Below, piece by piece: positions 23,090 through 54,215 of a stretch of DNA of 64,000 bases (position 1 is its first letter; every line of letters starts with the position of its first letter). The position numbers and the translations under genes were made by a program. Below the pieces are notes generated by a model. The model was not told where the DNA came from and did not search any database. It saw only the letters and a list, made by a program, of their open reading frames with translations. Origin of the DNA: a virus; IMG/VR virus record IMGVR_UViG_3300044825_001015, positions 32,001 through 96,000 of that record. One strand, given 5' to 3'.

Positions 23090-23545
23090 ATGGAAAGCAT
23101 AGTAGTTGATACAGATATAGAATTAGGAGAGTGGCCTCAAGAATTTTCTGGCGCTTGGATGTATATCTACTACGATTTTCCTACTACAGATACAGTAATG
23201 TGCCTGTTTTTTGATTCAGATTTTGAAGAAGGAACTGTCATAGAAGGATATAGACCAACTATACAAATTCCATCAGCATATGTATCCTGGAAAGAAGATG
23301 GGGTATGCAGAGATATATTTGTACATCCAGATTTTAGAAGGCTTGGCGTAGGGTCAAAACTCTGCGCCTATGCTCGTTCTTATTTATTAAAAGAAGATAA
23401 AGTATTCAATGCTCCAGAAACAATGTCTGCTGCTGCTGACGGAATGTATGAAAAAATTTCAGAGGTATATGGAGAGCCTTATCACACTCCAAATGTAGTT
23501 TCACATCCAATACCGTATGGCTATTGGGGAGGATATTTAGTATAA
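23090..23545 (+). CDS. GNAT-family acetyltransferase
   Basis: Acetyl-CoA binding motif 'IFVHPDFRRLGVGSKL'. Confidence 0.7.
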   Translation: MESIVVDTDIELGEWPQEFSGAWMYIYYDFPTTDTVMCLFFDSDFEEGTVIEGYRPTIQIPSAYVSWKEDGVCRDIFVHPDFRRLGVGSKLCAYARSYLLKEDKVFNAPETMSAAADGMYEKISEVYGEPYHTPNVVSHPIPYGYWGGYLV

Positions 23546-29044: not shown

Positions 29045-29088
29045 ATATACAGGGCATCCTATAGCCCAATACACTTAGGAGATATATT

Positions 29089-29754
29089 ATGGGATTAGTA
29101 AAAGGTCTTAAGGCCATGAACCAAACAATTGATCGCCCCGCTGCTTCTTCAGACGGCCCTCGCGGTCGCTGGCTAAAGTTGAACGATGGTCAGAGTGTTA
29201 AGATTAAATTTCTTCAGGAACTAGATCCTGATTCACCAAATTACAATGATAAGGCTGGACTAGCATTTATTGCTGTTGAGCATACCAACCCATCCGATTA
29301 CCGTCGCAAGGCTCTTTGTAGCATTGAAGATCAGGGTCGTTGCTTTGGATGCGAAATGCATCGTCGTGACCCCAAGGCTGGATGGAAGGGCCGTAGCCGA
29401 CTCTACTGCAACATTCTTGTAAATGATGGTAATGAAGATCCATACGTTGCAATTTTCTCTCAGGGTACTGGACCAAAGTCAGCAACGCCTGAGATTATTC
29501 AATATGCTGGAGAGACTGGAAGCATTACTTCCAACACCTGGCGATTGAAGCGCACAGGTGAGCGCACAGATACAAACTACAGCATTATTCCTCTACCTAC
29601 TGATTCAGATCCAGTAGATATTGATGAACTAGAACTGTTCGATCTTGAGAAGTTGGCAGTTCGTGATGTTCCTTACGATGAGCAAGAATCCTTCTACACA
29701 GGTGTTTCTGGTGGAGAAGAGAGCGGTTCATCATCATCAAATGTTGAATGGTAA
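29089..29754 (+). CDS. Single-stranded DNA-binding protein (gp32-like)
   Basis: Zn-binding His/Cys residues, acidic tail ending in W, position between primase and polymerase. Confidence 0.7.
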   Translation: MGLVKGLKAMNQTIDRPAASSDGPRGRWLKLNDGQSVKIKFLQELDPDSPNYNDKAGLAFIAVEHTNPSDYRRKALCSIEDQGRCFGCEMHRRDPKAGWKGRSRLYCNILVNDGNEDPYVAIFSQGTGPKSATPEIIQYAGETGSITSNTWRLKRTGERTDTNYSIIPLPTDSDPVDIDELELFDLEKLAVRDVPYDEQESFYTGVSGGEESGSSSSNVEW

Positions 29755-29770
29755 ATAGAAGATATGCTAC

Positions 29771-29798
29771 GCTAGGGCGGTAGAAATACCGCCCTAGC
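29771..29798 (+). terminator. GC-rich hairpin GCTAGGGCGGTA-GAAA-TACCGCCCTAGC
   Basis: Perfect 12-bp stem with a GNRA loop and no U tract, as seen in actinobacterial terminators/attenuators. Confidence 0.65.
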
Positions 29799-29815
29799 AG
29801 CATTATAGGAGACAA

Positions 29816-32800
29816 GTGACTGATTTAGTACATCTACATGTTCATAGCCATTACAGTCTAATGGATGGCCTTTCCTCACCAGCAGAATTACTCGCTGCAG
29901 CAAAGGATCTTGGACAGACGGCTCTCGCTGTGACAGATCATGGCACACTATCTTCCCACCGCGATATGCAGAAATCAGCACGCGAGGCGGGACTAAAGCC
30001 AATCCTAGGTGTAGAGGCTTATATCTCAGAGACAGACAGATTCGACAAGCGAGATATTAAGAGTCGTGACGATAATACTCAGGTATTCAATCATATTATC
30101 CTTCTGGCTAAGGACCAGGCTGGTCTTCAGAATCTTCAGAAGTTATCTGAGTTAGCGTGGAATGAAGGATTCTACCGCAAGCCGCGCATCGACTTTGAAG
30201 TCTTGAGTGATTATGGTGATGGCCTTATTGTCCTGTCGGGATGCCTTAATGGGCTTATTTCTAAGGCTATCCAGCGAGGCGATGAGGCCAAGGCCCGTGA
30301 TATGCTTAGATTCTTTAAGAATCGATTCAATGATGACTTCTACATGGAAGTTCAGCCACATAATCCTCCAGAGATTAATCATGCTCTTCTTAATCTGGCT
30401 GACGAGTTTAAGATCAAACCAGTAACTACTTCAGACTGCCATTTTGCGCGGGAAGATCAAAGAGCCGTAGAAGAAGCCCTACTTATCCTTTCTACTAAGC
30501 CTAATATGAATAAGGATGCATCTTACGCATCTGGCAAGCAGATCAAGGATGTATTCGAACGTCTTAACCACCTGTATCCAGAGCGCCCGATTTCCTTTGA
30601 GGGGTGGGACTTGTTCATCCAGAGTCGCCTAGATATCGACACATGGTATAAGAAGTCTGGGATTGATCGTACCGATATCTACGAAAGCACGCTGGAGATT
30701 GCAGATAAGATCGGGGAATACGAATATTACGAAAACCTATCCCTGCTCCCACAGCCTAAGAAAGATCCTAATGTTCAGTTAGCAGAGATGTGTGGGTATG
30801 AACTTAGAGCAAAGGGGCTGGAGGCTGAAGAATACATTAATAGACTTAATGAAGAATTAGAGGTAATTAAGGACAAGGACTTTGCCTCCTACTTCTTAGT
30901 TGTTGCAGATATGATTCAGTATGCTAAGAAGAACAATATTTTAGTGGGTCCAGGACGAGGATCAGCAGCAGGATCACTAGTATGCTACTTGCTTGGAATC
31001 ACAGAAGTAGATCCTATTGAGTATGATTTACTGTTCTTCCGATTTATTAACCCAGAACGAAACGATTTCCCAGATATTGATACAGACTTTATGGATCGCC
31101 GTCGTAACGAGGTTAAGGAATACCTACGCAAAAAATTTAAAAACGTTGCTAGTATTTCTACCTTCCAATATTTTAAGGACAAGGGTGTCGTTCGTGATGC
31201 TTCTCGCGTATTTGCAGTACCACTAGGAGATGTAAACAAGGCTCTAAAGGGTATTGAGACTTGGGAAGATTTTGAATCAAATCCAAATACTAGATGGTTC
31301 CGCGATAAGTATCCAGAAGTTACAGATTTGGCTAGCAAACTTCGTGGAAGAATTCGCGCAGTTGGAGTTCATGCTGCAGGAGTGGTTGTTGCAAAGGAGC
31401 CTATTTCTAAGTACGCTCCTATGGAAACTAGAAGTGACACTAACGACAAGGTAAGTGGTCGCGTTCCAGTAGTTGCATATGACATGGAGCAAGCAGCGGA
31501 TATTGGATTGATTAAACTAGACGCCCTTGGCCTTAAAACTCTTTCAGTAGTTAAAGACACTCTAGACATTATCAAGGATAGGACTGGTAAAGATATTGAC
31601 TTGCATTCAATATCTTTAGATGATGAATTAGTTTATCAAGACCTATCTAATGGTTTTACCAAGGGTGTGTTCCAGGCAGAGGCAACTCCGTATACTAATT
31701 TGCTAATTAAGATGGGTGTAGAAAGATTTGAGGATTTAGTAGCCTCTAATGCACTTGTTCGCCCTGGCGCTATGAATACTGTAGGCGCTGCATATATCGC
31801 TCGTAAGCAGGGTAGAGAGCAAATTAAATATGTTCATGAGATAATGCGTCCTTTCACAGAACGAACATATGGTGTTATCATATATCAGGAGCAAGTTATG
31901 CAGGCTTGTGTTTACCTAGGTGGTATGACATGGGCAGAAGCAGATAAGGTCCGAAAAATTATTGGTAAGAAAAAGGATGCAAAAGAGTTTGAACAGTTCA
32001 GAGAAAAATTTGTTTCTGGCGCTACAAAGCACATTAGCCAAGAGGCGGCAGAACATCTTTGGCACGATTTTGAGGCCCATGCTGGATATTCCTTTAACCG
32101 CTCTCACGCCGTTGCGTACTCCATGCTCTCTTATTGGACGGCTTGGCTCAAACATTATTACCCACTTGAATTCATTTTCGCAATACTCAAAAATGAGGGA
32201 GACAAGGATGCGAGAACAGAATACTTACTGGAGGCTAAAAGGCTAGGTCTTAAAGTGCTTCTCCCACATGTTAATGAATCTGACATAGATTTTAGTTTAC
32301 AGGGAGATAGCATTAGATTTGGCTTGGCAGATATTAAATTTATTTCAGAGTCTATTAGTAATAAGTTAATTGCAGCAAGGCCATTTAAGAATTACGAACA
32401 ACTATTAGAGTTCTCTAAGGCAAAGGGTAGCGGAGTAAATAGTCGTGCTATCTCAGCATTAAATGCAATCGGAGCAGCAGCATTTGACGATAACCCAAGA
32501 AGTGGTAATGAATCTGAAAATTACTATGAGTATTTAAACATACCAAAGTTTGACGTAAAGGGTCTTACTCCTTTTATCAAGAGTCAGGTGTCCCCGCTTG
32601 AAGATTTTACAGAAGATGGGTGCTATATCCTGATGGCTATGGTTAAGTCAATTAAGAAGGGAAATGGATGGTCCAGAGTAGAGTTAGTAGACGATACAGG
32701 AGCAATTGGTATTTTCCACACAGAAAATACTCAAATAGAAACAGGGAACATGTATTTCTTCCTAGTTGGAGACAATCGAATTCATCGATATGTTACCATA

Positions 32801-43002: not shown

Positions 43003-43076
43003 GGGGCGGTGGCGCAGTCGGTGAGCGCAGTACTCTTATAAGGTAAAGGTCGTGGGTTCAAGTCCCACCCGCCCTA
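43003..43076 (+). tRNA. tRNA-Ile (anticodon UAU)
   Basis: Cloverleaf with acceptor GGGGCGG/CCGCCCT, anticodon loop CTTATAA and T-loop TTCAAGT. Confidence 0.85.
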
Positions 43077-43077
43077 C

Positions 43078-43208
43078 GGTTACAGATGGCAATATCTTAG
43101 GATGGTGTAGTTACATACAAATATCCCGTTATAGCGAGTCTGCCGTTGAGTGCGTTGAATTCGTTTCTAGCGTCTTTCGTGCAAAAGGATTCGTAGCCAT
43201 CTGTAATC
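43078..43208 (+). ncRNA. Candidate structured ncRNA filling the tRNA-Ile/tRNA-Pro spacer
   Basis: 13-bp terminal helix GGTTACAGATGGC/GCCATCTGTAATC plus internal hairpins; no credible ORF. Confidence 0.6.
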
Positions 43209-43211
43209 CTA

Positions 43212-43285
43212 CGGGATGTGGCGCAGTTTGGTAGCGCACCTGTTTTGGGAACAGGGGGCCGAAGGTTCAAATCCTTTCATCCCGA
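43212..43285 (+). tRNA. tRNA-Pro (UGG)
   Basis: Acceptor CGGGATG/CATCCCG, loop TTTGGGA. Confidence 0.92.
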
Positions 43286-43286
43286 C

Positions 43287-43574
43287 ATGGAAATTTTATT
43301 TGTAATTACAGCAGGCACCTTGCTTGCAGAAGGATTTGCTTTTGTGCTTTTAATGAAGCATATAAAGCAAATTCGTTCTGAGTTTAATATGTATCAGAAG
43401 AACCAAAACGATGCAGATATAATTTCCGAAACTATAGATATGTACCAGGAAAAAATTATAGAACTTGAAGAAAAAAATAATAAGTTATCAATAGAAAATA
43501 AACTTCTTCAAGAAAAACTATCTAAAATAAATAAGCAAATGAAGCAGATCAGCGATCATTTTAAAACAAACTGA
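43287..43574 (+). CDS. Membrane-anchored coiled-coil protein
   Basis: N-terminal TM helix MEILFVITAG..; starts 1 nt after tRNA-Pro. Confidence 0.6.
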   Translation: MEILFVITAGTLLAEGFAFVLLMKHIKQIRSEFNMYQKNQNDADIISETIDMYQEKIIELEEKNNKLSIENKLLQEKLSKINKQMKQISDHFKTN

Positions 43575-43586
43575 TATAATTAATGT

Positions 43587-43823
43587 ATGGGAGACTCAAT
43601 GGAAACTGAAGTTCAGGGAAAGGAAAGAGTTCTTACCAGAAGCGACAGGTGCGATGCTCCAAAGTGTCCAGCCCAAGCGTGGGTTATTGCTAAGTTTGTA
43701 ACTGGAGAATTGTATTTCTGTGGGCACCACTTTGACAAGTATGAAGTCAGTATCATTCGTGATGCATATGACATTGTAGATGAAAGAGAATTTATCAATG
43801 CTAAATCAGAATCTTCTGCTTAG
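43587..43823 (+). CDS. Conserved actinobacterial-type Zn-binding small protein
   Basis: 'DRCD..C.AQA...L.FCGHH' motif; leaderless geometry from TGATATAAT at 43572. Confidence 0.65.
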   Translation: MGDSMETEVQGKERVLTRSDRCDAPKCPAQAWVIAKFVTGELYFCGHHFDKYEVSIIRDAYDIVDEREFINAKSESSA

Positions 43824-44307
43824 TAAGAAAGATAAAATAAAACTTGTTAGAGAGCGTGACGGATTTACATGCGCTATCTGCCTAAAAGATTTTAAAGCAA
43901 ATTCTGATGTAACGTTAGATCATTGGATTCCCAAATCAGCGGGTGGATCTGAGGATATATCTAATCTAAGACTTGCACATAAAAAATGTAATGCATGGAA
44001 AAGCGATAGGATACCTAATGAAGATGGAACAATTCCTCCACGCCCTCCAAGATCTAATTTTCAGGATAGAAAGCGGAGAAAGCAGGAGATACTAGAAAAC
44101 CTTTGCACAGATTGTTATGACGGAAGGCTTTTGCTGCAGGGGGAGACATGCCCATATTGTGGATCTCCAGCGGGTCCAGAAGACTGGCCCCATTGGGCAA
44201 GGCGTCCAGCAAACAAGTGTGATCATACTCCGCCAGAATGGTGTTGGGCATGTTCTATAGGAATAGTTGACCGAAAGCCAGTATTTTTGGTACTATTAGA
44301 GGGATAG
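43798..44307 (+). CDS. HNH endonuclease with C-terminal Cys-rich domain
   Basis: RDGFTCAIC, DHWIPKS.GG and NL...H..CN motifs. Confidence 0.85.
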   Translation: MLNQNLLLSKKDKIKLVRERDGFTCAICLKDFKANSDVTLDHWIPKSAGGSEDISNLRLAHKKCNAWKSDRIPNEDGTIPPRPPRSNFQDRKRRKQEILENLCTDCYDGRLLLQGETCPYCGSPAGPEDWPHWARRPANKCDHTPPEWCWACSIGIVDRKPVFLVLLEG

Positions 44308-44311
44308 GTAA

Positions 44312-44382
44312 TCCCCATTGGTGTAATGGCAGCACAAATGACTTTGGATCATTTAGTCGTAGTTCGAATCTATGATGGGGAG
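44312..44382 (+). tRNA. tRNA-Gln (UUG)
   Basis: Acceptor TCCCCAT/ATGGGGA, loop CTTTGGA. Confidence 0.92.
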
Positions 44383-44394
44383 CGGGAGGTAAAA

Positions 44395-44643
44395 ATGCCT
44401 TGGAAGATAGTAAGAAACTTTGGTGATTGCAATGGATATGCAGTAGTCAAAGAGGGGACTAGTGAGATTGAAGGTTGTCATTCTACTAGGTCCGCAGCAG
44501 AAGCACAGCAACGTGCGCTATATGCATCTGAAAATAAGTCAATTCATAATGATGATGAAGAGGATGATGAGCGCAGAGGTAAGCGCAGAAATGAATCCCA
44601 CAAATTCTGGGATGGCGCATTTATTGAAAAGGGTTATAATTGA
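44395..44643 (+). CDS. Small phage protein with C-terminal KFWDGAF tag
   Basis: SD GGAGGT; 'MPW...C.GYAVVK...GCH...A..Q.ALYA.E'. Confidence 0.7.
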   Translation: MPWKIVRNFGDCNGYAVVKEGTSEIEGCHSTRSAAEAQQRALYASENKSIHNDDEEDDERRGKRRNESHKFWDGAFIEKGYN

Positions 44644-44780
44644 CACGCGATAAAGTAATTGAGAAACTTAAGAATAAGAGAATGGAGAATAACGCTATCT
44701 CTAGCGAAATCTCCTCATACATTGCAGGATGGAATGGTGCAATCGACTATGCCATTCAGCAACTAAAGAAGAAAGATTAA
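44640..44780 (+). CDS. Hypothetical protein (46 aa, not in ORF track)
   Basis: TTG start overlapping the upstream stop; MTRDKVIEKL... Confidence 0.5.
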   Translation: MTRDKVIEKLKNKRMENNAISSEISSYIAGWNGAIDYAIQQLKKKD

Positions 44781-44782
44781 TT

Positions 44783-45196
44783 ATGAAGAAGATTATTATT
44801 GCTACTGCAATTTCTGCTGTAGCGCTAGTTGGATGTACTTCACAGTCAGCACAACCAGCACCTACTGTAACTATTACAAAGGCTGCACCAGCACCATCAC
44901 TAGATGATCCAGAGGTAATCCCACAACCAGCCATGGGTAATGAGGAACTGTACCTTATTGGTCTTAAGTCGATGGATAATCCGCTTATCAATATTGCTAC
45001 AGACGAGCAACTTCTTGATATGGGCTACTCCGTATGCGAGGCTCTTGAATCTGGGTTCACAGTAGAGGATATTATTCAGTATATGGCTACAGAGATGGCA
45101 AGAGAGGGTCTTACTTCTGATTACCAGTCAGAGGCAGTAGGATATATTATTGGGGCTGCAGATACCGCTCTGTGCCCAGGATCTAGTACATTCTAG
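44783..45196 (+). CDS. Lipoprotein (DUF732-like)
   Basis: Signal MKKIIIATAISAVALVG-C lipobox; 'GYSVCEAL' and C-terminal 'ALCP'. Confidence 0.75.
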   Translation: MKKIIIATAISAVALVGCTSQSAQPAPTVTITKAAPAPSLDDPEVIPQPAMGNEELYLIGLKSMDNPLINIATDEQLLDMGYSVCEALESGFTVEDIIQYMATEMAREGLTSDYQSEAVGYIIGAADTALCPGSSTF

Positions 45197-45204
45197 ATCC
45201 AAAC

Positions 45205-45275
45205 GCGGCTGTGGTGTAGAGGTAACACATCTGCCTTCCAAGCAGTTATCGCCAGTTCGATTCTGGTCAGCCGCT
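45205..45275 (+). tRNA. tRNA-Gly (UCC)
   Basis: Acceptor GCGGCTG/CAGCCGC, loop CTTCCAA. Confidence 0.92.
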
Positions 45276-45277
45276 CT

Positions 45278-45949
45278 ATGAGTGATTTAAAGTATTCTGT
45301 TGTTGAATATGATACATACTTAACATATGCTATATGGACGCCAGAAAGAGAAGATTCTGATTTTATAATAGGATATGGAACAGAAGTATCAGTAATTTAT
45401 CCAATAGTAGAATATATTTATCCTAACGATTATCCAAATAATTCTGGGTGGAATAGATTATTAAAATCCAAAATTTTTAAAAACCAAAGAGGAGAGTATT
45501 CTGGTCAAGGATGTGATGAATCAGGAACAATGCCATTATTTAATTTACATTATTCTTTACCAGTAATATTTAGAGCGTTTTCACACAAAGACTACAAGGC
45601 GCTATTTACAATTCTCATGGCACTAGCATTAGTAGATAGTAAAAATAGATTTGGGACAGAGGGAGTGTCGTCTTTTGAACTATCACCAGAGATGCTTAAT
45701 TTCTTAGAAAGAACTGATAAATTCTGGGGTAGCAGAAGCGCAGAAATACACATGAAGGCCGAACTTCTTGAAGAATATGATTCTGACAATTGGGAAGTAA
45801 AACTTCCTAAAAACAAAATATTAGACATTGAAAAAAATGTAGTATTGCAATCTAAGGCAGAATTCAAGCGCAGAATATTTTACAAAAAATATAGCAATAG
45901 AGTAAACTTAAGTAATTGTGAGCAGTTAGAAATAGACTGGCCCCAGTAA
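45278..45949 (+). CDS. Hypothetical protein bracketed by tRNA-Gly and tRNA-Arg
   Basis: Starts 2 nt after tRNA-Gly; stop codon lies inside tRNA-Arg. Confidence 0.65.
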   Translation: MSDLKYSVVEYDTYLTYAIWTPEREDSDFIIGYGTEVSVIYPIVEYIYPNDYPNNSGWNRLLKSKIFKNQRGEYSGQGCDESGTMPLFNLHYSLPVIFRAFSHKDYKALFTILMALALVDSKNRFGTEGVSSFELSPEMLNFLERTDKFWGSRSAEIHMKAELLEEYDSDNWEVKLPKNKILDIEKNVVLQSKAEFKRRIFYKKYSNRVNLSNCEQLEIDWPQ

Positions 45950-46012
45950 CTCAGAGGATAGAGTGTCGGACTTCTAATCCGTTGGTCGCAGGTTCGAATC
46001 CTGCCTGGGGCG
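45940..46012 (+). tRNA. tRNA-Arg (UCU)
   Basis: Acceptor GCCCCAG/CTGGGGC, loop CTTCTAA. Confidence 0.92.
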
Positions 46013-46013
46013 C

Positions 46014-46526
46014 GTGGAAAAAATATATCATAAATTTCATATATCTGACTATCTTAATATAAAAAGTGATTTGATAGAAAAGATACACCTCTCTGAGTCA
46101 AAAAAGGACTTTGAGAATATATCAAGGACAGACTGGGATATTAAAAACGATGACCTTGATAGAGACTGGGCTAAGTGCTTTTTAGATAATTTTTATAAAA
46201 AAATAAAGTACACATATAACCAAATTGGATTTAAAAAAATAGAAATACAAAATATCTGGTTCCAAGAGTACGATTACCAGTCGAGTTTTGAGTGGCATAA
46301 CCATCCAGGAGCAGACTTTGCAAGCGTATTCTTTTTGAATTTTTCAAAAAATAATCCTGGAACAGAATTCATGGTAAATGATAAAATATTAAGAGCAGAA
46401 GTAGAGGAAGGAGATATAATTATATTTCCAGCAACTATAATGCATAGATCTCCACCAAATTTATCTGATGATAAAAGAATTATTATAGCCTTTAATGTAA
46501 AAGTAAATGAAAAAAATATGTCATAA
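46014..46526 (+). CDS. 2OG-Fe(II) oxygenase-like protein (TIGR02466-like)
   Basis: 'WHNHP', 'EEGD..IFP...H' and 'R..IAFN' motifs. Confidence 0.75.
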   Translation: MEKIYHKFHISDYLNIKSDLIEKIHLSESKKDFENISRTDWDIKNDDLDRDWAKCFLDNFYKKIKYTYNQIGFKKIEIQNIWFQEYDYQSSFEWHNHPGADFASVFFLNFSKNNPGTEFMVNDKILRAEVEEGDIIIFPATIMHRSPPNLSDDKRIIIAFNVKVNEKNMS

Positions 46527-46623
46527 TTGTAAAAATGAAAAGGATCTAATAGAATTCCTTTTAAAGTCAGGGCAACGAGTTGGCGCTAGAGGAATTTGTT
46601 TAGATTGCTTCAATGCCAGATAG
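46507..46623 (+). CDS. Small CxxC-CxxC protein (38 aa, not in ORF track)
   Basis: MKKICHNC...ICLDCFNAR; stop codon lies inside tRNA-Tyr. Confidence 0.5.
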   Translation: MKKICHNCKNEKDLIEFLLKSGQRVGARGICLDCFNAR

Positions 46624-46694
46624 TCCCCAAGGTGGGGAAGCGGTCTGTAAAACCGTCGCCATCGGCATGGTTGGTTCGATTCCAACATCTGGCA
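46615..46694 (+). tRNA. tRNA-Tyr (GUA), atypical D-arm
   Basis: Acceptor GCCAGAT/ATCTGGC, loop CTGTAAA, long variable arm. Confidence 0.8.
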
Positions 46695-46698
46695 CTTG

Positions 46699-46770
46699 TG
46701 GCGTGTGGCGCAATGGCAGCGCAATCGGCTGTTAACCGATGGGTTGTAGGTTCGAATCCTACCACGCCAG
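46699..46770 (+). tRNA. tRNA-Asn (GUU)
   Basis: Acceptor TGGCGTG/CACGCCA, loop CTGTTAA. Confidence 0.92.
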
Positions 46771-46771
46771 C

Positions 46772-47758
46772 GTGAAGAGTATATTTGTTTCTGTAGTTTC
46801 TTTTAATGAACCTTTTTTAAAAGAGACTATTTTAAGTGCAATAAAAAAATCTAGTAAGCCAGAAAGAATATACTTTGGTGTTGTAGAACAACGTACTGAC
46901 TCAAACTTTGCAGACCTAAAAGAAATAAAAAATGTAAAGCATATTTCTATGCAAGTAGGAGGCCCACTTGGAGTAGGCATTCCAAGAAAACTAAGCATGG
47001 AACTTCTAGATAATCAAGATTACTGTCTAATCATAGATTCTCATATGATTTTTAATGACAACTGGGACGAAAATATAATCAGAAGAATAAAGCACATAAG
47101 TAAAATTTATTCTGAAAAAGTTATTATATCTCAGCATTTACCAGTATTAGATGTAGATGATAATAATTTAGTTTTATATCCAGAAAAGAAAAAAGACACA
47201 CCATGTTATTTAAAATTTGATGGAATATTTATTGATGACATTCCAATACCAAATGGTCATGAATTTTATCAGCAGTACGCACTCACATGCCACTATTTGT
47301 TTTCACTTTCAAAATCCTTCAAGGAAGTAGTGTTTGATCCACGAATATTTTATTTCGCAGAAGAGTCATCCTTAGCGATGAGATTTATAACTAGAGGATA
47401 TAAAATATTTTCTACGAGATATTTCCCTATGTTTCATCTACAAAAAACAAATGGTAAAAAAATTAAAAGTTGGCAGACATTAAATGGAACATCAAGGCTT
47501 CAAGACGATATTGAAATAGTTTATAGTATATTTTCGGGCAAGGAAATAGGTGTATGGGGGGCACCGTCAAAATGTAGGTTAGATGATTTTTTGGCGGAAT
47601 CTAGGCTAGACATATCATATTATATGTCTGGGGTAGACCATGATTTAGATATAAATAAGCAAATAAGAAGTAAGATAGTAGACATGTTTGATAATGGTAA
47701 TGATTTTTATGAAAACCTATATCAAAATTTTATTCCAGCAATAAGGAGTCCTAAATGA
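46772..47758 (+). CDS. GlcNAc-transferase-like glycosyltransferase (GT60-like)
   Basis: 'IFVSV.S..EP.L..T', 'IYFGV.EQ', IDSHM.F..NWD, 'F.AEE' motifs; GTG start 1 nt after tRNA-Asn. Confidence 0.75.
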   Translation: MKSIFVSVVSFNEPFLKETILSAIKKSSKPERIYFGVVEQRTDSNFADLKEIKNVKHISMQVGGPLGVGIPRKLSMELLDNQDYCLIIDSHMIFNDNWDENIIRRIKHISKIYSEKVIISQHLPVLDVDDNNLVLYPEKKKDTPCYLKFDGIFIDDIPIPNGHEFYQQYALTCHYLFSLSKSFKEVVFDPRIFYFAEESSLAMRFITRGYKIFSTRYFPMFHLQKTNGKKIKSWQTLNGTSRLQDDIEIVYSIFSGKEIGVWGAPSKCRLDDFLAESRLDISYYMSGVDHDLDINKQIRSKIVDMFDNGNDFYENLYQNFIPAIRSPK

Positions 47759-49434
47759 AGGTTTTAGGGTTGTCTCCGTTTCATGATGCTGGCGCAGTCC
47801 TAGTAGAAGACGGGTTTGTAAAAAAATATTTTAAAGAAGAAAGACTTAATAGAATAAAAAGAAGTTCCTGTCCAGAATTATCTATAGAGAAATGTTTAGA
47901 GGGCGTAGAAGAAGTTGAATTATTTTCATACTCTGCAGCGACACACAGATTATCATTCGCAAAAAGAGATGAAGATTTATCTTATAAGTTTCTACATTGG
48001 CAAGATGCCGTTAAAAAGCATTCAAAATTAATAGATTCAATAGATTTATCTAGAATGCATCATCTCCAGCACGCATCCACTTCATTTTATAATAGCGGGT
48101 TTAGTGATGCTGCTGTCATAGTTGTCGATGGTAGAGGCTCTAACTTTGGAACTATAGTAGAAACAGAAACAATATTTTATGCAGAGTATCCAGATATTTT
48201 TACTCCTGTATATAAAGCATATGAAAAAACATTTAGATTTAATAAAGAAGATGTAGATCGGGAAAGAAAAAGGCTTCCAGATTGTGAAATAAAAGTATCT
48301 TCTAATTTAGGAATAACTCACCTATACTGCACGGCAACACATTTGATTAATGAATCATTCTTAGAAAATGGAAAGACTATGGGCCTTTCCGCGTATGGAG
48401 ATGCTAGCATTAATTACGAGCCGCTACTCTTGGAGGGAGAAGCCCTAGTAGATCCAGGCAAATTTATTATTTTTGAAACTCCAGAATTAGCAGAATCACC
48501 GCTTGAAGTTATTTATCATAAAGACTATGTAGGTAAACAAAATATTGTAACTAAAGAAAACTATCATATTTATGCTAATTATGCTTTACATGTTCAAAAA
48601 GAAACAGAACGTGCATTAGAAATATTAGTAAATAAGGCAATAGAAAAAACTGGTAGTAAAAACATATGTTTGGCAGGAGGCTATGGACTTAATATAGTTA
48701 ATAATTTAAAGTTGCTTCAAAAGTTTCCTGGGGTAAAGTTTTATTTCGATCCAATGTCTGATGACGGAGGTACTTCAATCGGTGGAGCAATGATTGCTTA
48801 TAGATCTGTAACTAAGGATCGTGAACCGAAACCTATTAAAAATAATTTTATACATGGGATAGATCATGATATAAGTAATATAAAGGGTACCAGCGTTTCA
48901 GAAAAAGATATTGCTAAAATAATTTATTCTGGAAATATAGTAGCAATGTATTACGGTCTAGCGGAGGCTGGACCAAGGGCACTAGGAAATAGATCCATCT
49001 TGTTTGATCCTAGAATAAAAAATGGAAAAGATATAATTAATGTAGTAAAAAAAAGAGAGTGGTATAGGCCATTTGCTGCCTCTATGCTAGAGGAAGATGC
49101 CACTAGGTACTTTGACTACATTGATAATATTGGTTATGAATACATGCTAGTTAATGCAATAGCAAAGCCAGATACTAAAGACATAATCCCCTCCGTTATT
49201 CATGAAGATGGATCATGTAGAATACATATAGTAAAAGATACTAGCCACCCACTATTTAAATTACTTACAAGTTTTAAAGAAATAACTGGCATCGGAGTTC
49301 TTCTTAATACAAGTTTCAACCTTGCTGGAGAGCCACTTATTGAAACTCCACAGGAAGCAATCGGCACCTGGAAGATTTCAGATATAGATTGTTTATGGTT
49401 TCCAAAGATACAAACTGCTCTAATAAAAACATGA
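47755..49434 (+). CDS. Carbamoyltransferase (NodU/CmcH family)
   Basis: HD, EER..R.K, HH..HA, DG.G, GK.MGL..YG, GPRALGNRS, RPFA and LNTSFN motifs. Confidence 0.92.
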   Translation: MKVLGLSPFHDAGAVLVEDGFVKKYFKEERLNRIKRSSCPELSIEKCLEGVEEVELFSYSAATHRLSFAKRDEDLSYKFLHWQDAVKKHSKLIDSIDLSRMHHLQHASTSFYNSGFSDAAVIVVDGRGSNFGTIVETETIFYAEYPDIFTPVYKAYEKTFRFNKEDVDRERKRLPDCEIKVSSNLGITHLYCTATHLINESFLENGKTMGLSAYGDASINYEPLLLEGEALVDPGKFIIFETPELAESPLEVIYHKDYVGKQNIVTKENYHIYANYALHVQKETERALEILVNKAIEKTGSKNICLAGGYGLNIVNNLKLLQKFPGVKFYFDPMSDDGGTSIGGAMIAYRSVTKDREPKPIKNNFIHGIDHDISNIKGTSVSEKDIAKIIYSGNIVAMYYGLAEAGPRALGNRSILFDPRIKNGKDIINVVKKREWYRPFAASMLEEDATRYFDYIDNIGYEYMLVNAIAKPDTKDIIPSVIHEDGSCRIHIVKDTSHPLFKLLTSFKEITGIGVLLNTSFNLAGEPLIETPQEAIGTWKISDIDCLWFPKIQTALIKT

Positions 49435-49453
49435 TTGCTGGTATAATTGTAAT

Positions 49454-49819
49454 ATGGAACTCTATGATGAATTAACAGAAGAAGAAAAAGCATATCATGA
49501 TGCAATGGTTTCTATTGCAGAAAGATTTGGCCCGTTTGACCAGGGAACATCAAGTATTTGGGTTGGATATGAAGGCCCAGAAGACAATGAAGATGCTCAA
49601 ATTGGTGTTAAGTGTGCTAATTGCTCCCTGCATATTGAGAGAGAAGACGGTCAATTAGGATGTGCTATCCTTTCTTATCTAGTTCATCCAGAAGCAAAGT
49701 GCCGCTTGGCAGCAATTCCAGATGGCTATGTAAATGCATCAATGGATGATGAAGATGATGATCCAAATGACGACGATGATATGATGGGCAAATTCTGGGG
49801 CGGATCTTTTCTTAAATGA
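49454..49819 (+). CDS. Acidic 4-Cys (HiPIP-like) protein with C-terminal KFWGGSF tag
   Basis: CANC...C...C; leaderless geometry from TGGTATAAT at 49439. Confidence 0.6.
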   Translation: MELYDELTEEEKAYHDAMVSIAERFGPFDQGTSSIWVGYEGPEDNEDAQIGVKCANCSLHIEREDGQLGCAILSYLVHPEAKCRLAAIPDGYVNASMDDEDDDPNDDDDMMGKFWGGSFLK

Positions 49820-49941
49820 ATAATGTAATTACCACGGAGACAATCCGTGGCGGAGGTGGCGGAATAAAGAATCCAGACCACTCAGATGGTAAAATAAAAA
49901 TAGGTAAATCTCCGCTTAAAGTTCGTCGCGGGAAGAAGTAG
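49816..49941 (+). CDS. Small basic protein (41 aa, not in ORF track)
   Basis: ATGA overlap; MNNVITTETIRGGGGG...RRGKK. Confidence 0.45.
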   Translation: MNNVITTETIRGGGGGIKNPDHSDGKIKIGKSPLKVRRGKK

Positions 49942-50045
49942 TGTTCACTTTTTATTGCTTAGTTAAACACAATGGTAACTACTACCTCAGACCTTACATT
50001 ACTTTGTATAATAATATGATTGAAATTGTAAATTATCCAAAATCG

Positions 50046-50074
50046 TTGACCATATCGTAATATTCCGGTATAAT
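50046..50074 (+). promoter_or_regulatory. Near-consensus sigma70/SigA promoter
   Basis: TTGACC-N17-TATAAT. Confidence 0.8.
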
Positions 50075-50106
50075 AGAATTCATGTTGCCGCCACAAGGAG
50101 GTCAAT

Positions 50107-50721
50107 ATGACGACAATAAACCGATTTGGTGCTGCATTAGTATCAACAGTAACAGTATTATCAATGCTACTAATCTCTCCAAACCTGGCGTATGCTAAGT
50201 CTACGCCTTTGGCGGAAGGTACGGGTAACTTTGCCACCGCTGATACATTAGAAAGAAGGGCAATAACAGATAGAAACTGGACTTTGCCATCTAACTGTAA
50301 TGATAAGCAGGCAAAGATACTATTTAAGGCGGGTTTTAATAGACCTGGAATGCTAAGAGGAGCCTGGGCAATTACCTGGCGTGAATCTAAGCACCAGAAT
50401 CTTTCCGAAAGCAGTCCTTGGTATTCAGGTGCGTTGGGTACTTGGCAAATTCAAACAAGTGCCTGGTCAGGAAAATCCTGGTGGTCTAGGGATAATATGC
50501 TAGACAAAGATAAGCAATCAGAAATTGTAAGAAAGCATTTCCTTAATGATGGTATGCATAATTGGGGATATGACTATTCATTTAAAAATGACTCATGGCA
50601 TGAAGATGCAGGAATGTATTATTCACTATGGGGTTCTGGACTAACGTATTCATGGGTAATCGCACCATTCAATACTGGATGGTCGTTGTTCCCAAAGAAA
50701 TGTACACCTGAAAAGATTTAA
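50107..50721 (+). CDS. Secreted lytic transglycosylase / lysozyme-like protein
   Basis: Signal peptide (AYA/K); catalytic 'AITWRES' and 'GALGTWQI'; SD AAGGAGGT. Confidence 0.75.
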   Translation: MTTINRFGAALVSTVTVLSMLLISPNLAYAKSTPLAEGTGNFATADTLERRAITDRNWTLPSNCNDKQAKILFKAGFNRPGMLRGAWAITWRESKHQNLSESSPWYSGALGTWQIQTSAWSGKSWWSRDNMLDKDKQSEIVRKHFLNDGMHNWGYDYSFKNDSWHEDAGMYYSLWGSGLTYSWVIAPFNTGWSLFPKKCTPEKI

Positions 50722-50774
50722 ATGATAGAATTATATTCTAGGCGCAAATAAAATTGCGGCAACAGCCTAGGATC

Positions 50775-50847
50775 GCCACAGTAACTCAGTTGGTAGAGTA
50801 CCCGCCTTGTAAGCGGAAAGTCATCGGTTCGAATCCGATCTGTGGCT
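50775..50847 (+). tRNA. tRNA-Thr (UGU)
   Basis: Acceptor GCCACAG/CTGTGGC, loop CTTGTAA. Confidence 0.92.
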
Positions 50848-50848
50848 C

Positions 50849-51166
50849 ATGGACTATAGTAATGAAGAAATAGAACACTTCATGAACTATTTAGAAGATG
50901 AAGGCGTTCTTGAATGGGTAGGTATGAGTGACGATGGAGAAAGAACGTTCGTCTTTAATTTTGAAAAGATGTACTTTGTTTTCCCAGAACTATATCATGC
51001 GATGATGGAAGAATTAAATAAAGAGTTGTTAAATCTTTACGACCTAGGGTTAGTTACTATAGAATACGATACAAATCTGCAGGCAAAATTTAGAATAACA
51101 GATGCTGGTAAAAAATATTTAGAAGAAAATGGTGTTCCAATACCAGAAGATTGGGAAGACGAGTGA
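50849..51166 (+). CDS. Hypothetical acidic protein (winged-helix-like C-terminus)
   Basis: 'L.DLGLV......ITDAGK.YL'; ATG 1 nt after tRNA-Thr. Confidence 0.6.
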   Translation: MDYSNEEIEHFMNYLEDEGVLEWVGMSDDGERTFVFNFEKMYFVFPELYHAMMEELNKELLNLYDLGLVTIEYDTNLQAKFRITDAGKKYLEENGVPIPEDWEDE

Positions 51167-51867
51167 GAAAAGTACTAACAAAGGAATACATCGAAAACCT
51201 TGGCTATGAGGTAGAAGAAATAAGTTATAGAATCTTTTTAGTAAAAAATTTTCTTACTGATGCAGAATCAAATAAATTAGTTAAAATAGGTAGACAGTCT
51301 AGTGATGAAGAATGGTCCTTTCATTACATGAATGGTGTCAGAGAGATGGCGCTATCAAAGTTCGGTAGAACAGATTTAGATAACTTAGTTGCAGAAGGAC
51401 TATACGAAATAACTCATAATTGGATAGATAAGACCCTTCCAATTAAAGATGATAATTTAAGAATAAGCCTAGACAAGAGATGCCAAAGATTGTTTGACTT
51501 TGTAGATGATCTGCAATTCAAAGGATGCGGAACTATTCAGAGACAATATGATGGTGTTCCACTAAAAGATCATGTTGACAATCATACAGATCCATCACTA
51601 GAATATGCAGTAGTTTTTTATCTGAATGACGACTATACTAATGGTGAAGTGTTTTTTGTAAATCAAGAAATACAGATGCGTCCTCCAAAAAATTCTCTTT
51701 TAATATTTCCAACATCAGAAGAATGGAGACATGGGGTAAATGCCCCAGGGCCAGGGCCACATAGATATGTGATCCCAGGATTTGTTGAGGTAAGAGATTT
51801 CTGGAAAAAGCATGAAGAGAATGGGTATAATTTAGAGGTAACGTTGAGCGAACTTAAAGGAGATTAA
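51163..51867 (+). CDS. Prolyl-4-hydroxylase-like 2OG-Fe(II) oxygenase
   Basis: HVD, YLNDDY..GE..F and HGV..R motifs. Confidence 0.85.
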   Translation: MRKVLTKEYIENLGYEVEEISYRIFLVKNFLTDAESNKLVKIGRQSSDEEWSFHYMNGVREMALSKFGRTDLDNLVAEGLYEITHNWIDKTLPIKDDNLRISLDKRCQRLFDFVDDLQFKGCGTIQRQYDGVPLKDHVDNHTDPSLEYAVVFYLNDDYTNGEVFFVNQEIQMRPPKNSLLIFPTSEEWRHGVNAPGPGPHRYVIPGFVEVRDFWKKHEENGYNLEVTLSELKGD

Positions 51868-51869
51868 TT

Positions 51870-52394
51870 ATGTCTAAGAATGTAATTGATTACTACAAGG
51901 AGTGGGAGACAGATCAGATTAAGGCTGATCTAGACACCCGTCGCCTTCCATTTATTGTAGGGTTTGAGAATCTTTCTGGAGATTTTAATAAGGCTACTGG
52001 AGTTCGTAATGCAAATGCATTCATGGCTAAGGAATGCTGGATTATTGGAAATAAGAAGTGGGATAAGCGTGGTGCCGTTGGAACACAGCACTATAATCAT
52101 TTGAAGTATGCACCTAATCTAGATAATATTTATCTACATGAGCATCAGGTTCGTGGTGCTAGATGGGTGGCTATCGATAATGTTCCAGGCGCTATTCCAA
52201 TTACTTCATATGAGTGGAAACCAGATACATTTATGATATTTGGTGAGGAGCAAAGAGGACTCAGCCCCATGGCACTTGGTATGGCAGATGACATTGTTTA
52301 TATTCCACAACTAGGAAGTGTTAGAAGTCTAAACGTGGGTACTGCTAGCGGCATAGTTATGTATGACTATGTGAGCAAACTAGGCATGATATAA
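51870..52394 (+). CDS. SpoU/TrmH-family RNA methyltransferase
   Basis: 'FGEE.RGLS' and 'YIPQLGSVRSLNVGTASGI' motifs. Confidence 0.9.
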   Translation: MSKNVIDYYKEWETDQIKADLDTRRLPFIVGFENLSGDFNKATGVRNANAFMAKECWIIGNKKWDKRGAVGTQHYNHLKYAPNLDNIYLHEHQVRGARWVAIDNVPGAIPITSYEWKPDTFMIFGEEQRGLSPMALGMADDIVYIPQLGSVRSLNVGTASGIVMYDYVSKLGMI

Positions 52395-52426
52395 TTATAT
52401 TTAAGAGAACAAAGAAAAGGATAAAA

Positions 52427-52762
52427 ATGGATAACAATATTAATAAGTCTGTATGGTCTGGTGTATTTTTCCCAGCAGACGAACCTGAGCAAGTTAGTTT
52501 ACCAGCAGAAGAGCCTCAAAACGCCCCTCTTGATACAGCAGATGTTGTAGAAACCAATTTTGAAGTAGAGCGTCAAGACATTTCTGAGGATACTTCAGTA
52601 ACTAATGAAGTTGAAGACACCCCTGCTATTGAAACTGTAGATGAAGTTGAAGAGCAGATAGTAGAATTGTCAGATGTTGAATCAGAACCTGTTCAGCAAA
52701 CAGCGGCTACTGAAGATGTTGCAGTTGAAAATGTAGAAGTTTCAGAAACAGTTTCTGAGTAA
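52427..52762 (+). CDS. Highly acidic disordered protein with N-terminal KSVWSGVF tag
   Basis: E/V/T-rich; TGATATAAT at 52387. Confidence 0.6.
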   Translation: MDNNINKSVWSGVFFPADEPEQVSLPAEEPQNAPLDTADVVETNFEVERQDISEDTSVTNEVEDTPAIETVDEVEEQIVELSDVESEPVQQTAATEDVAVENVEVSETVSE

Positions 52763-53691: not shown

Positions 53692-53896
53692 GGCACACGA
53701 TTTTGTCGCCAAGAATTCACATCGTGGATATTTCTGGAACGGATGGGATATTCATCGGTGGGTTCCCAATGCATCTGGATATATGTCTAAGGACGGGGAA
53801 TTCAGAAATGATAGGTGGGGCATGAAGTTTACCTTCCCCGTGTCTCACGATGGAACTTGGAAGGTTAAGGTTCCTGATAATGTCCAATATAATTGA
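53663..53896 (+). CDS. Hypothetical protein
   Basis: Trp-rich ORF within the operon. Confidence 0.55.
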   Translation: MKTITLNYSEAHDFVAKNSHRGYFWNGWDIHRWVPNASGYMSKDGEFRNDRWGMKFTFPVSHDGTWKVKVPDNVQYN

Positions 53897-54215
53897 GCAA
53901 TTAGGTTTAGATCCAGAAAATGTAAAATGGTATCAACTTTCCGCATGTGTTGGAATGGACATAAACTTATTTTACGATGATTATGAAACAGATAAGCACA
54001 TTGCATCACAAGTAGATGAGGTATGCCTTCATTGTCCAGTTGTAAAACAATGCTATAATGAAGGTACCTCTAACAAAGAGCGTGGCGTATGGGGTGGCGT
54101 CTACTTAGATTTAGGAAGAGTAGATAAAGAGCATAACTCCCATAAAACTCAGGAAGTGTGGAAGAACTTAAAGAGAATACATGGATCAGGTATTTTACAC
54201 AAAAGAGATGGCTAA
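53880..54215 (+). CDS. whiB: WhiB-family transcription factor
   Basis: W...AC...LF...VCLHCPV..C...GVWGG. Confidence 0.88.
   Translation: MSNIIEQLGLDPENVKWYQLSACVGMDINLFYDDYETDKHIASQVDEVCLHCPVVKQCYNEGTSNKERGVWGGVYLDLGRVDKEHNSHKTQEVWKNLKRIHGSGILHKRDG

Follow-up and report, generated by a model that had tools for sequence, protein, structure and literature searches.

Three small proteins encoded within the window analysed here, a stretch of 64,000 nt from the 104,844-bp genome of an uncultured lake phage, carry the same short peptide, K-x(1-2)-W-x-G-x-F. The question raised by this locus is whether the peptide directs its bearers into the capsid. The earlier note had proposed that it mimics a coat-binding peptide of the scaffold and loads cargo into the procapsid, and a genome-wide motif search had been set beforehand as a test, absence of the motif from the scaffold and its homologues counting against the idea.

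Three unrelated proteins with a common peptide

ORF1 (82 aa; 44395..44643, plus strand) consists of a beta-beta-beta-alpha domain (residues 1-51), a disordered mixed-charge linker, and the tag K-F-W-D-G-A-F (44602..44622, plus strand), located 6 residues before the stop. In its AF2 model (mean pLDDT 70.5), residues 1-40 scored approximately 85 and residues 52-82 approximately 50. The start at 44395, which the earlier note had adopted, was supported because a longer version starting at 44326 overlaps tRNA-Gln (44312-44383) and because M1-P2 is invariant in 54 aligned homologues. W-x-G-x-F was found in the last 20 residues of 33 of the 62 homologues, while 2 had I in place of F, 1 carried an internal tag, and 26 were devoid of the tag.

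ORF2 (121 aa; 49454..49819, plus strand) comprises a domain with four invariant cysteines (C54, C57, C70, and C83), an acidic linker, and the tag K-F-W-G-G-S-F (49790..49810, plus strand), 2 residues before the stop; pLDDT fell below 50 over residues 86-121 of its AF2 model. In 51 aligned sequences, W115 and G117 were invariant and F119 was retained in at least 90%, and the invariance of W and G held down to approximately 54% identity while the linker changed in length (0 to approximately 22 residues in the family). The last 20 residues contained W-x-G-x-F in 56 of 65 homologues, the remainder being made up of 3 with I/L/M/V for F, 2 with internal tags, and 4 with a one-residue variant. In the ORF1 and ORF2 families, the tag appears to behave like a selected linear motif, being kept while the linkers vary.

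ORF3 (111 aa; 52427..52762, plus strand) displays its tag, K-S-V-W-S-G-V-F (52445..52468, plus strand; residues 7-14), at the N-terminus, and behind it runs a long tail that is acidic and of low complexity (32 D+E, 2 K+R). Its orthologues in three relatives (G006, G003, and G007) have an additional N-terminal domain (phrog_2859) ahead of the tag, which is absent from ORF3, and the closest of these relatives, G006, reads N-K-S-I-W-S-G-V-F-F-P at the position matching the ORF3 tag.

The positions and sequences given for the three tags were borne out on re-check, and the proteins proved to be otherwise unrelated, as had been claimed: ORF1 and ORF2 aligned only over the acidic linker and tag (26 residues, E = 4.5e-4), and the comparison of ORF1 with ORF3 gave no match. 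The calculated pI values of ORF1, ORF2, and ORF3 were 5.57, 4.05, and 4.05. The DNA reported to be common to the first two tags is the 11-nt string CAAATTCTGGG, found only at 44601 and 49789, and corresponds simply to the K-F-W-G codons.

A distance of 45-55 kb separates the tagged genes from the head genes, and their neighbours are tRNA and enzyme genes. ORF1 is preceded by the ribosome-binding site GGGAGCGGGAGG, and an extended -10 element, TGATATAAT (43572..43580, plus strand), stands at the head of the DUF7455 - HNH - tRNA-Gln - ORF1 run. The extended -10 elements of ORF2 (TGGTATAAT; 49439..49447, plus strand) and ORF3 (TGATATAAT; 52387..52395, plus strand) end 6 nt and 31 nt, respectively, before the start codons. 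The type seen at ORF2 also occurs directly upstream of the head protease gene (9 nt from element to ATG) and upstream of the gene that follows the capsid gene (4 nt). Since genes other than ORF2, ORF3, and the protease gene carry this type as well, it is not head-gene specific and argues only weakly for a role of the tag in the head.

A weaker tag had also been suspected at the end of the GNAT acetyltransferase (23090-23545), where W-G-G-Y-L-V occupies 23525..23542 on the plus strand. The ending YWGGYLV was confirmed, and 9 of 10 homologues terminate in the identical Y-G-Y-W-G-G-Y-L-V (the other in W-G-G-I-F-V-N), but this tail has neither a variable linker nor K, and L replaces F; we regard it as a possible weak tag.

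The tail of the protease-scaffold

A six-frame scan of the whole genome returned exactly four matches to the full motif, all on the plus strand and in real ORFs: those in ORF1, ORF2, and ORF3, and a sole additional one at the C-terminus of a 514-aa head maturation protease-scaffold. Only this fourth match constitutes an independent test, because the motif was defined from the other three. When residues were shuffled within each ORF of a crude set of 171 ORFs (2000 shuffles), the mean was 0.143 matches against the 4 observed; for matches within 12 residues of a protein end, it was 0.021 against 4.

The protease-scaffold gene (genome positions 28862-30406, plus strand, just outside the window) is located between the portal and capsid genes. 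Its product matched phrog_9427 'head maturation protease' (E = 2.8e-127) and Pfam Peptidase_S78 (E = 2.2e-7, 31.6 bits, cut-off 21), and scored 22.7 bits against Peptidase_S78_2, just below the cut-off of 24. The upstream portal matched PF04860 (E = 1.1e-30), and the downstream 330-aa protein matched phrog_1623 (E = 1.8e-93) and phrog_10 'major head protein' (E = 7e-8); the order portal - protease - capsid is annotated likewise in Streptomyces phage Bordeaux. No sequence relative of the capsid protein or the protease from which a binding pocket could be mapped was found in the PDB. We assigned the 514-aa protein, by sequence, as a caudovirus prohead serine protease (Peptidase_S78 / XkdF type) fused to a scaffold, with the layout S78 protease, TUDOR insert, acidic stretch, coiled coil, and tail.

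This protein ends in K-G-I-W-S-G-S-F-L followed by 5 residues, the motif lying 6 residues before the end. Among 80 homologous loci, 70 were complete, and W-x-G-x-F-L was present in all 70 (49 distinct tails) at 6-9 residues from the end, with W, G, F, and L never changing. The motif is accordingly present on the scaffold and throughout its complete homologues. The tails conform to the consensus [K/S]-hydrophobic-W-x-G-x-F, in which K is kept 1-3 residues before W, often as K-S, and a further element, T-A-x-[K/R/Q]-K-S, is invariant in 70/70 tails at 17-23 residues upstream of W. The tail is also present in gp49 of Bordeaux (approximately 52% identical), and all four genomes fetched via the ORF2 gene, not the protease, encode a protease with the tail. 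Three of ten relatives examined (G002, G004, and Bordeaux) have the protease tail with no other tagged gene, which indicates that the tail does not need cargo.

The tag had been described as terminal. It lies near the protein end in all four copies of this genome, but strict terminal position did not hold, the tag being internal in relatives, flanked by a folded domain on one side and by another domain or an acidic tail on the other. Terminal position is not required of the tag.

Tagged domains in relatives and their fusion to head proteins

Counted over nine genomes, the tag occurs in no fewer than five domain contexts that are unrelated to one another. One relative (G008) encodes a free-standing tagged protein of 141 aa whose TUDOR domain matches the TUDOR insert in the lake phage's own protease at 53% identity (E = 1e-26), and the G008 protease is without this insert. 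Actinomycetia phage DSL-LC01 encodes an untagged 852-aa 'capsid maturation protease', and ORF2 residues 7-94 matched the C-terminal domain of this protein (37.5% identity, E = 4e-12). Among 72 proteins of at least 250 aa containing the ORF1-type domain, 23 were fusions to head-protein domains (18 with Peptidase_S78 or S78_2, 4 with Phage_Mu_F, and 1 with Phage_capsid), and 35 matched no Pfam family; a 388-aa multi-domain protein combines the ORF1-type domain with two internal tags. The covalent fusion of tagged domains to prohead proteases, MuF, or capsid proteins fits a destination in the head interior.

A putative procapsid-docking peptide

Four observations, namely that the motif is shared, that it is conserved, that the tethers are disordered, and that the passenger domains are fused to head proteins elsewhere, lead us to propose that the tag is probably a transferable copy of the scaffold tail that docks in the procapsid and serves putative cargo loading into the capsid. 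The protease-scaffold tail, the conservation in the families, and the fusions to head proteins lend support to the scaffold-peptide mimicry suggested beforehand. Weighing against the proposal are the three relatives that have the protease tail and no other tagged gene, the 26 of 62 ORF1-family proteins devoid of the tag, the distance of the tagged genes from the head genes, the lack of head-gene specificity in the promoter type, and the 35 of 72 long ORF1-domain proteins that match no Pfam family. The original copy of [K/S]-hydrophobic-W-x-G-x-F would be the C-terminal tail of the protease-scaffold fusion, which would dock on the inner face of the assembling shell and thereby bring in protease and scaffold. 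The receptor would most likely be the major capsid protein, although the portal or the scaffold itself could serve instead. In ORF1, ORF2, and ORF3, this peptide would be held out on a flexible linker, acidic for the most part; these proteins would dock at the site of the tail and end up enclosed in the procapsid, either as cargo or as accessory internal proteins. A subsequent cleavage or ejection of the tagged proteins is a step that we infer, and the NKS cut sites suggested in the earlier note are putative. Such docking would work like the capsid-targeting signals of T4 and P1, the encapsulin targeting peptides, and the tail common to SaPI1 CpmB and the 80alpha scaffold, while being a member of none of these systems.

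A C-terminal address on a head protease has parallels. Duda, Oh and Hendrix reportedly ascribed, in 2013, a targeting role to the C-terminal region of the HK97 gp4 protease, and in lambda (C/Nu3) and the herpesviruses, nested protease and scaffold genes share a common C-terminal end that puts the protease inside the shell. Unlike these arrangements of one gene or nested genes, separate and distant genes each carry their own copy here. In T4, gp21 cleaves off the targeting signal, whose action is believed to run through the scaffold core. For the T4 internal proteins (IPI-III, Alt) and P1 DarB, a short peptide suffices to send unrelated proteins into the prohead (PMC9024508). The tag is similar to these signals, as far as that account describes them, in residing on unrelated proteins whose genes are distant from the head genes, with prohead entry being predicted here; it differs from the N-terminal signals in being mostly C-terminal or internal, in its sequence, in copying the tail of an S78 protease-scaffold, and in belonging to an HK97-type siphophage relative. 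A T4-type capsid targeting sequence, which would be N-terminal and cut off at a defined site by the prohead protease, was rejected as an assignment, two of the three tags being C-terminal.

Encapsulin Family 1 targeting peptides, for which the consensus SDGSLGIGSLKRS is quoted, are short terminal peptides behind a flexible linker, usually C-terminal and sometimes N-terminal, that dock inside an HK97-fold shell (PMC8346489). ORF1 and ORF2 likewise carry a short peptide near the protein end behind a variable, low-pLDDT linker. In the terms of that source, the differences are the sequence ([K/S]-hydrophobic-W-x-G-x-F against the G-S-L-x-I-G-S-L-K type), a shell that is a phage capsid protein with cargo genes 45-55 kb from the shell gene instead of beside it, and a tag peptide that is also the scaffold's own tail. 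The 80alpha scaffold and SaPI1 CpmB possess a common C-terminal helix-and-hook (RIIK motif) that binds the N-arm of the capsid protein in procapsids (PMC5644958). The same terminal peptide is found here, by sequence, on a scaffold and an otherwise different protein; as that pair is described, however, RIIK follows an amphipathic helix, unlike the glycine-containing W-x-G-x-F, and CpmB is a satellite's size-redirecting scaffold, whereas the copies here reside on the phage's own small non-scaffold domains. Polyvalent and MuF-linked proteins, built of small shuffled domains predicted to ride in the capsid, are thought to enter as structural-domain fusions (Iyer et al. 2017, PMC5512222). The ORF1-type domain resembles them in its MuF fusions (4/72) and in the 388-aa protein with its internal tags, in contrast to the free-standing small proteins with a peptide tag. 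No paper describing a W-x-G-x-F tag was found in the literature.

Binding to the shell need not mean packaging, and the tagged proteins could instead be assembly factors, that is, auxiliary or competing scaffolds tuning scaffold occupancy, capsid size, or internal charge, and leaving before or during DNA packaging. CpmB, described as copying the 80alpha scaffold tail and competing with the scaffold for capsid protein (PMC5644958), provides a precedent; all tagged proteins are small with a disordered acidic segment, and ORF3 is little more than the tag and an acidic low-complexity tail, whose composition is similar to that of the acidic stretch in the protease-scaffold. We nevertheless regard this role as unlikely, because the ORF1-type, ORF2-type, and TUDOR domains form compact folds and move between proteins (MuF-type ones among them) in the manner of effectors or passengers, no scaffold-type coiled coil or dimerisation domain was predicted in any tagged protein, and the three relatives with only the protease tail assemble without such a protein. 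It is likewise rather improbable that, instead of being a shell address, the motif marks a site for recognition or cleavage by the prohead protease, or offers a docking site to a different partner (such as portal, protease domain, or host factor). HK97-type proteases cut after K, and the K preceding W and the internal tags between domains in relatives would suit cleavage; processing signals are indeed plausible near the tail, since the T-A-x-[K/R/Q]-K-S element is invariant. A cut 6-9 residues from the protease end, however, would remove almost nothing, yet the following F-L is invariant, the residue after K varies (S, G, or F in this genome), and a host-factor motif is not expected on an internal scaffold protein.

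Chance resemblance, or a non-functional recombination relic of the 3' end of the protease gene, was already disfavoured and is hardly credible. The motif is short, chance alone would yield 1.1-1.7 copies of the bare W-x-G-x-F in each genome, and the first two tags share the 11-nt string; against this, none of the 2000 shuffles reached four full matches, W and G persist across the ORF2 homologues despite the changing linkers, the domain contexts are diverse, and the string merely encodes K-F-W-G. The WXG100 family of Actinobacteria forms a helical hairpin of approximately 100 aa with W-x-G in the turn. A type VII secretion substrate of this kind was ruled out, the tags lying in low-confidence non-helical tails and the motif also occurring on the internal head protease. 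A W-x-G look-alike in the phage WhiB was attributed to that family's own motif in a different context.

The proposed docking of the tag in the procapsid is directly testable, because cultured Streptomyces phages (127 records) carry the same tail. Head-carried phage proteins include anti-defence and take-over factors, and as a rule only virion proteomics of cultured phages reveals them. If the proposal is true, a tag common with the scaffold tail would allow head-carried proteins to be predicted from metagenomes; HK97-type phages would naturally use an encapsulin-like loading rule, and a small natural peptide would be available for loading foreign proteins into actinobacterial phage capsids. 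On a wider and rather unlikely reading, a large clade of actinobacterial phages, from lake to Streptomyces phages, may load its capsids via a scaffold-tail label legible in sequence, with protease fusion and free tag as interchangeable routes into the head; the internal, and possibly injected, proteome of uncultured phages could then be predicted from their sequence alone, and the same principle may be a viral forerunner of encapsulin cargo loading.

The tag in three small proteins and at the end of the head protease

The small proteins carrying the K-x(1-2)-W-x-G-x-F tag are encoded by ORF1 (44395-44643 of the window), ORF2 (49454-49819), and ORF3 (52427-52762), and the tag was found in each at the position claimed by the earlier note. 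An alternative, longer ORF1 start at 44326 reads across tRNA-Gln, and M1-P2 is invariant among ORF1 homologues. That the proteins are otherwise unrelated was also borne out: only the tag is common to all three, plus an acidic linker in ORF1 and ORF2. None gave a Pfam match above the curated cut-off or a PHROGs family. In the AF2 models, the tag-bearing stretch was disordered (pLDDT below 50 for ORF2 residues 86-121 and about 50 for ORF1 residues 52-82), and ORF1 residues 1-51 formed a three-stranded sheet and a helix. A Foldseek search with the ORF1 fold yielded no PDB match at E ≤ 0.001; in BFVD, the top match was an uncharacterised phage protein (E 7e-4), and the five entries whose names were prohead protease or phage head maturation protease came up only at E 0.18-0.37, a lead then tested by sequence with the ORF1-family profile. 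The ORF2 model (mean pLDDT 54.7) was too low for a fold search, and the ESM Atlas returned only unnamed viral clusters and one weak HIPIP lead at 0.86. The ORF2-type domain contains four invariant cysteines. Within its folded part (residues 34-47, window 49553-49594), an invariant W36-V37-G38-Y39 lies in a segment S-I-W-V-G-Y-E that resembles the tag and aligns weakly to the tag region of ORF3 (E 0.19); it may be a coincidence or an internal look-alike.

The tag pattern gave four matches in the six-frame translation of the whole genome, as against a mean of 0.143 in residue shuffles of the 171-ORF set, none of 2000 shuffles reaching four. Because three of the matches had defined the pattern, the fourth constitutes the real test. 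It is located at genome position 30362, which is 1.6 kb short of the window start. There it stands 6 residues before the C-terminus of a 514-aa head maturation protease-scaffold (genome 28862-30406; phrog_9427, E 2.8e-127; Peptidase_S78). The scaffold/protease C-terminus had been named beforehand as the place where the proposal could fail, and the motif is present there. The protease contains an inserted TUDOR domain (PF11160, residues 249-295) as well as an acidic segment and a tail region that is helical, and its gene is flanked by the portal gene (PF04860) and the major capsid gene (phrog_1623, phrog_10).

Eighty related loci were collected from viral contigs, 70 with a complete protease ORF and 10 cut by the contig end. 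W-x-G-x-F-L followed by 6-9 residues ends all 70 complete proteases, and W, G, F, and L are unvarying across the 49 distinct tails. Position -1 is mostly hydrophobic (I/M/L/V/F in 34/49, K in 10/49), and the commonest residues at -2 and -3 are S (33/49) and K (26/49), respectively. Possession of this tail is constant across the protease family. Also invariant in 70/70 is T-A-x-[K/R/Q]-K-S, 17-23 residues upstream of the tail W (genome 30260-30406; loci L004-L083), a candidate site for maturation cleavage by which the scaffold could be released from a docked tail. The tail also occurs in gp49 of Streptomyces phage Bordeaux. Among cultured phages, the scaffold-tail region was found only in 127 Streptomyces phage records, and 26 Vibrio, Rhodococcus, and other records matched by the protease were absent from the scaffold-tail search. 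PDB sequence searches with the capsid profile and the protease gave no hits.

The source genome, that of a tailed phage, is a single contig of 104,844 bp (window, bases 32001-96000); its G+C content is 38.8%, and it carries a terminal direct repeat of 127 bp. In head protease, capsid protein, and gene order it agrees with the Stanwilliamsviridae (Streptomyces phages, 125-135 kb), the protease being approximately 50-53% identical to its counterparts in the 127 Streptomyces phage records, and it encodes the actinobacterial families DUF732, DUF7455, and WhiB. Eight tRNA genes (Ile, Pro, Gln, Gly, Arg, Tyr, Asn, Thr) are interspersed with the tagged genes at window 43003-50848, several of them overrun by automatic ORF calls, including the long form of ORF1. 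Between the tagged genes (window 46014-49434 and 51151-52394) lie genes for two 2OG-Fe(II) oxygenases, a GlcNAc-type glycosyltransferase, a carbamoyltransferase, and a SpoU methylase.

Distribution and position of the tag among related viruses

Nine related virus records (95-116 kb, G001-G009) and Streptomyces phage Bordeaux were scanned over their full length for proteins other than the protease that bear a tag of the same type. Three such proteins were counted in the source genome (G000), G003, G006, and G007, two in G008 and in G001 (the latter with three tags), one in G005 and G009, and none in G002, G004, and Bordeaux. The protease with its tail was present in 4/4 genomes reached via the ORF2 gene. 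The tagged proteins are assembled from a small repertoire of modules, combined as ORF1-type, TUDOR, tag (G008); ORF1-type, ORF2-type, TUDOR, tag (G009); or ORF1-type, tag, DUF5872 (G003, G007); G001 encodes a multi-domain protein of 388 aa in which two tags lie internally.

Bare W-x-G-x-F without the K/S-hydrophobic prefix, or within globular or large proteins, was set aside as background, of which 0-3 instances per genome were observed, in line with the 1.1-1.7 expected from shuffles. Treated in this way were R-I-H-W-D-G-D-F-F, conserved in a 240-aa enzyme of G001, G002, G003, G004, and G007; single occurrences in large proteins (tail proteins or others) of G003, G005, G008, and Bordeaux; and short ORFs in G000 (genome 97512-97742), G002, G003, and G004. 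The acetyltransferase (GNAT) at window 23090-23545, considered as possible further cargo, ends in W-G-G-Y-L-V, invariant in 9/10 database homologues, with neither linker nor K/S-hydrophobic prefix, and no homologue of it was found across the ten other genomes.

Within the ORF2 family, W-x-G-x-F fell in the last 20 residues of 56 of the 65 cluster representatives; the remainder comprised three with I/L/M/V for F, two with an internal tag before an extra domain, and four one-residue variants, none being tagless. In the alignment of 51 sequences, W115 and G117 do not vary, F119 is retained in at least 90%, and the linker ranges from none to about 22 residues and is mostly acidic. The 62 ORF1-family representatives included 33 whose tag fell within the final 20 residues, two I variants, one internal tag, and 26 without the tag, the last including the more distant homologues. 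In the ORF3 orthologues of G003, G006, and G007, a folded N-terminal domain (phrog_2859) is followed by the tag and an acidic tail; since this domain is absent in the source genome (window 52400-52762 versus L199:14281-14919), the tag of ORF3 is now N-terminal. The SpoU methylase gene now stands directly upstream of ORF3. Thus, the tag called terminal in the earlier note is C-terminal or N-terminal here but internal in some relatives, and the family data, variable linkers, and internal positions make it a linear motif that is independent of position and set in disordered sequence, rather than a strictly terminal one.

In several tag-bearing proteins, about 45 further residues follow the tag, and the chain closes with another conserved motif, G-Y-G-N-[R/S/H]-S (L113:4390-4812 of G005, L086:9400-10566 of G001, and the relatives P0138, P0142, P0158, P0177, P0259, and P0276).

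Tagged modules within head proteins

Three independent lines of sequence evidence indicate that the tagged modules are head proteins elsewhere. The TUDOR domain of a free 141-aa tagged G008 protein matched the TUDOR insert of the G000 protease (53% identity, E 1e-26, 85 residues), and their tails align; TUDOR lies inside 4 of 13 scanned proteases (G000, G005, L011, L028) and is absent from the other nine. ORF2 residues 7-94 matched the C-terminal domain of an 852-aa 'capsid maturation protease' of phage DSL-LC01 (37.5% identity, E 4e-12), which has no W-x-G-x-F. The ORF1-family profile matched 2193 cluster representatives, 386 at E ≤ 1e-10; the best 150 of the 2193 comprised 146 new proteins, 72 of them at least 250 aa, in which the ORF1-type domain was mostly N-terminal. 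Pfam identified Peptidase_S78 or S78_2 in 18 of these 72, Phage_Mu_F in four, Phage_capsid in one, TUDOR in eight, DUF5872 in four, other families in two, and nothing in 35. HMMs of ORF1 and ORF2 gave no matches to the 80 related protease ORFs; within this clade, neither domain lies inside the protease. By these fusions, each module is physically tied elsewhere to a protein built into the prohead, and a free-standing copy with the scaffold tail would be the simplest equivalent route there.

The DSL-LC01 sequence is a metagenome-assembled Actinomycetia phage genome (described in PMC10611076). Its locus L222 (OQ999401.1 63882-72133) has three consecutive genes annotated 'capsid maturation protease', and the neighbouring capsid protein (647 aa) has its own long acidic N-terminal extension, a different scaffold solution. 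An R-R-H-I-I-x-R-A-R-x-L-G module following the tag in P0042 and P0059 also occurs within the 852-aa protease. P0258 (754 aa) combines an ORF1-type domain with an XkdF-type prohead protease domain and a Zeta-toxin kinase domain, and might represent an effector that enters the head attached to the protease.

Proposed docking on the procapsid and other readings

The data directly show that the peptide is shared and conserved, that its tethers are flexible, and what the modules are fused to. Readings of the tag as a WXG100 secretion signal, an SSB-type acidic tail, or the WhiB G-V-W-G-G motif were rejected. The phage WhiB-like protein (window 53850-54215) contains G-V-W-G-G-V-Y, a W-x-G look-alike that we take to be a conserved turn proper to the WhiB family, not the tag. 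Two alternatives concern the partner and the role of the tagged proteins: the portal or the scaffold, instead of the capsid protein, could act as receptor; and the tagged proteins could serve as accessory scaffolds and not as cargo. A complex prediction of the capsid protein with ORF2 residues 84-121 scored 0.00 (mark 0.32) in a run without controls and bears on neither side.

An extended -10 element, TGnTA[T/G]AAT, is common to ORF2, ORF3, and the protease gene. It occurs 20 times on the + strand and twice on the - strand of the whole genome (e.g., window 49439, 52387, 43572, and 20292) and is not confined to head genes, so that it argues only weakly for co-expression of the three. Several of these elements end only 4-9 nt before the start codon, suggesting leaderless or near-leaderless mRNAs.

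Capsid address peptides and mimicry of a scaffold tail are already known in principle. In the published literature searched, we found no description of the tag peptide, of its origin in an S78 protease-scaffold tail, or of its dissemination among separate small genes across a large clade of uncultured actinophages. The HK97 protease tail offers one basis for analogy. Others are provided by the 80alpha scaffold and SaPI1 CpmB (PMC5644958), the T4 and P1 targeting signals (PMC9024508), and encapsulin targeting peptides (PMC8346489).

We accordingly read the tag as a probable procapsid-docking address copied from the protease-scaffold tail. While the shell assembles, the protease tail would dock on the capsid protein at its inner surface, a site that the cargo tags would share. 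More speculatively, cleavage at the conserved K-S elements might separate cargo or scaffold from the peptide once this is docked, and the cargo might then exit with the DNA at the next infection.
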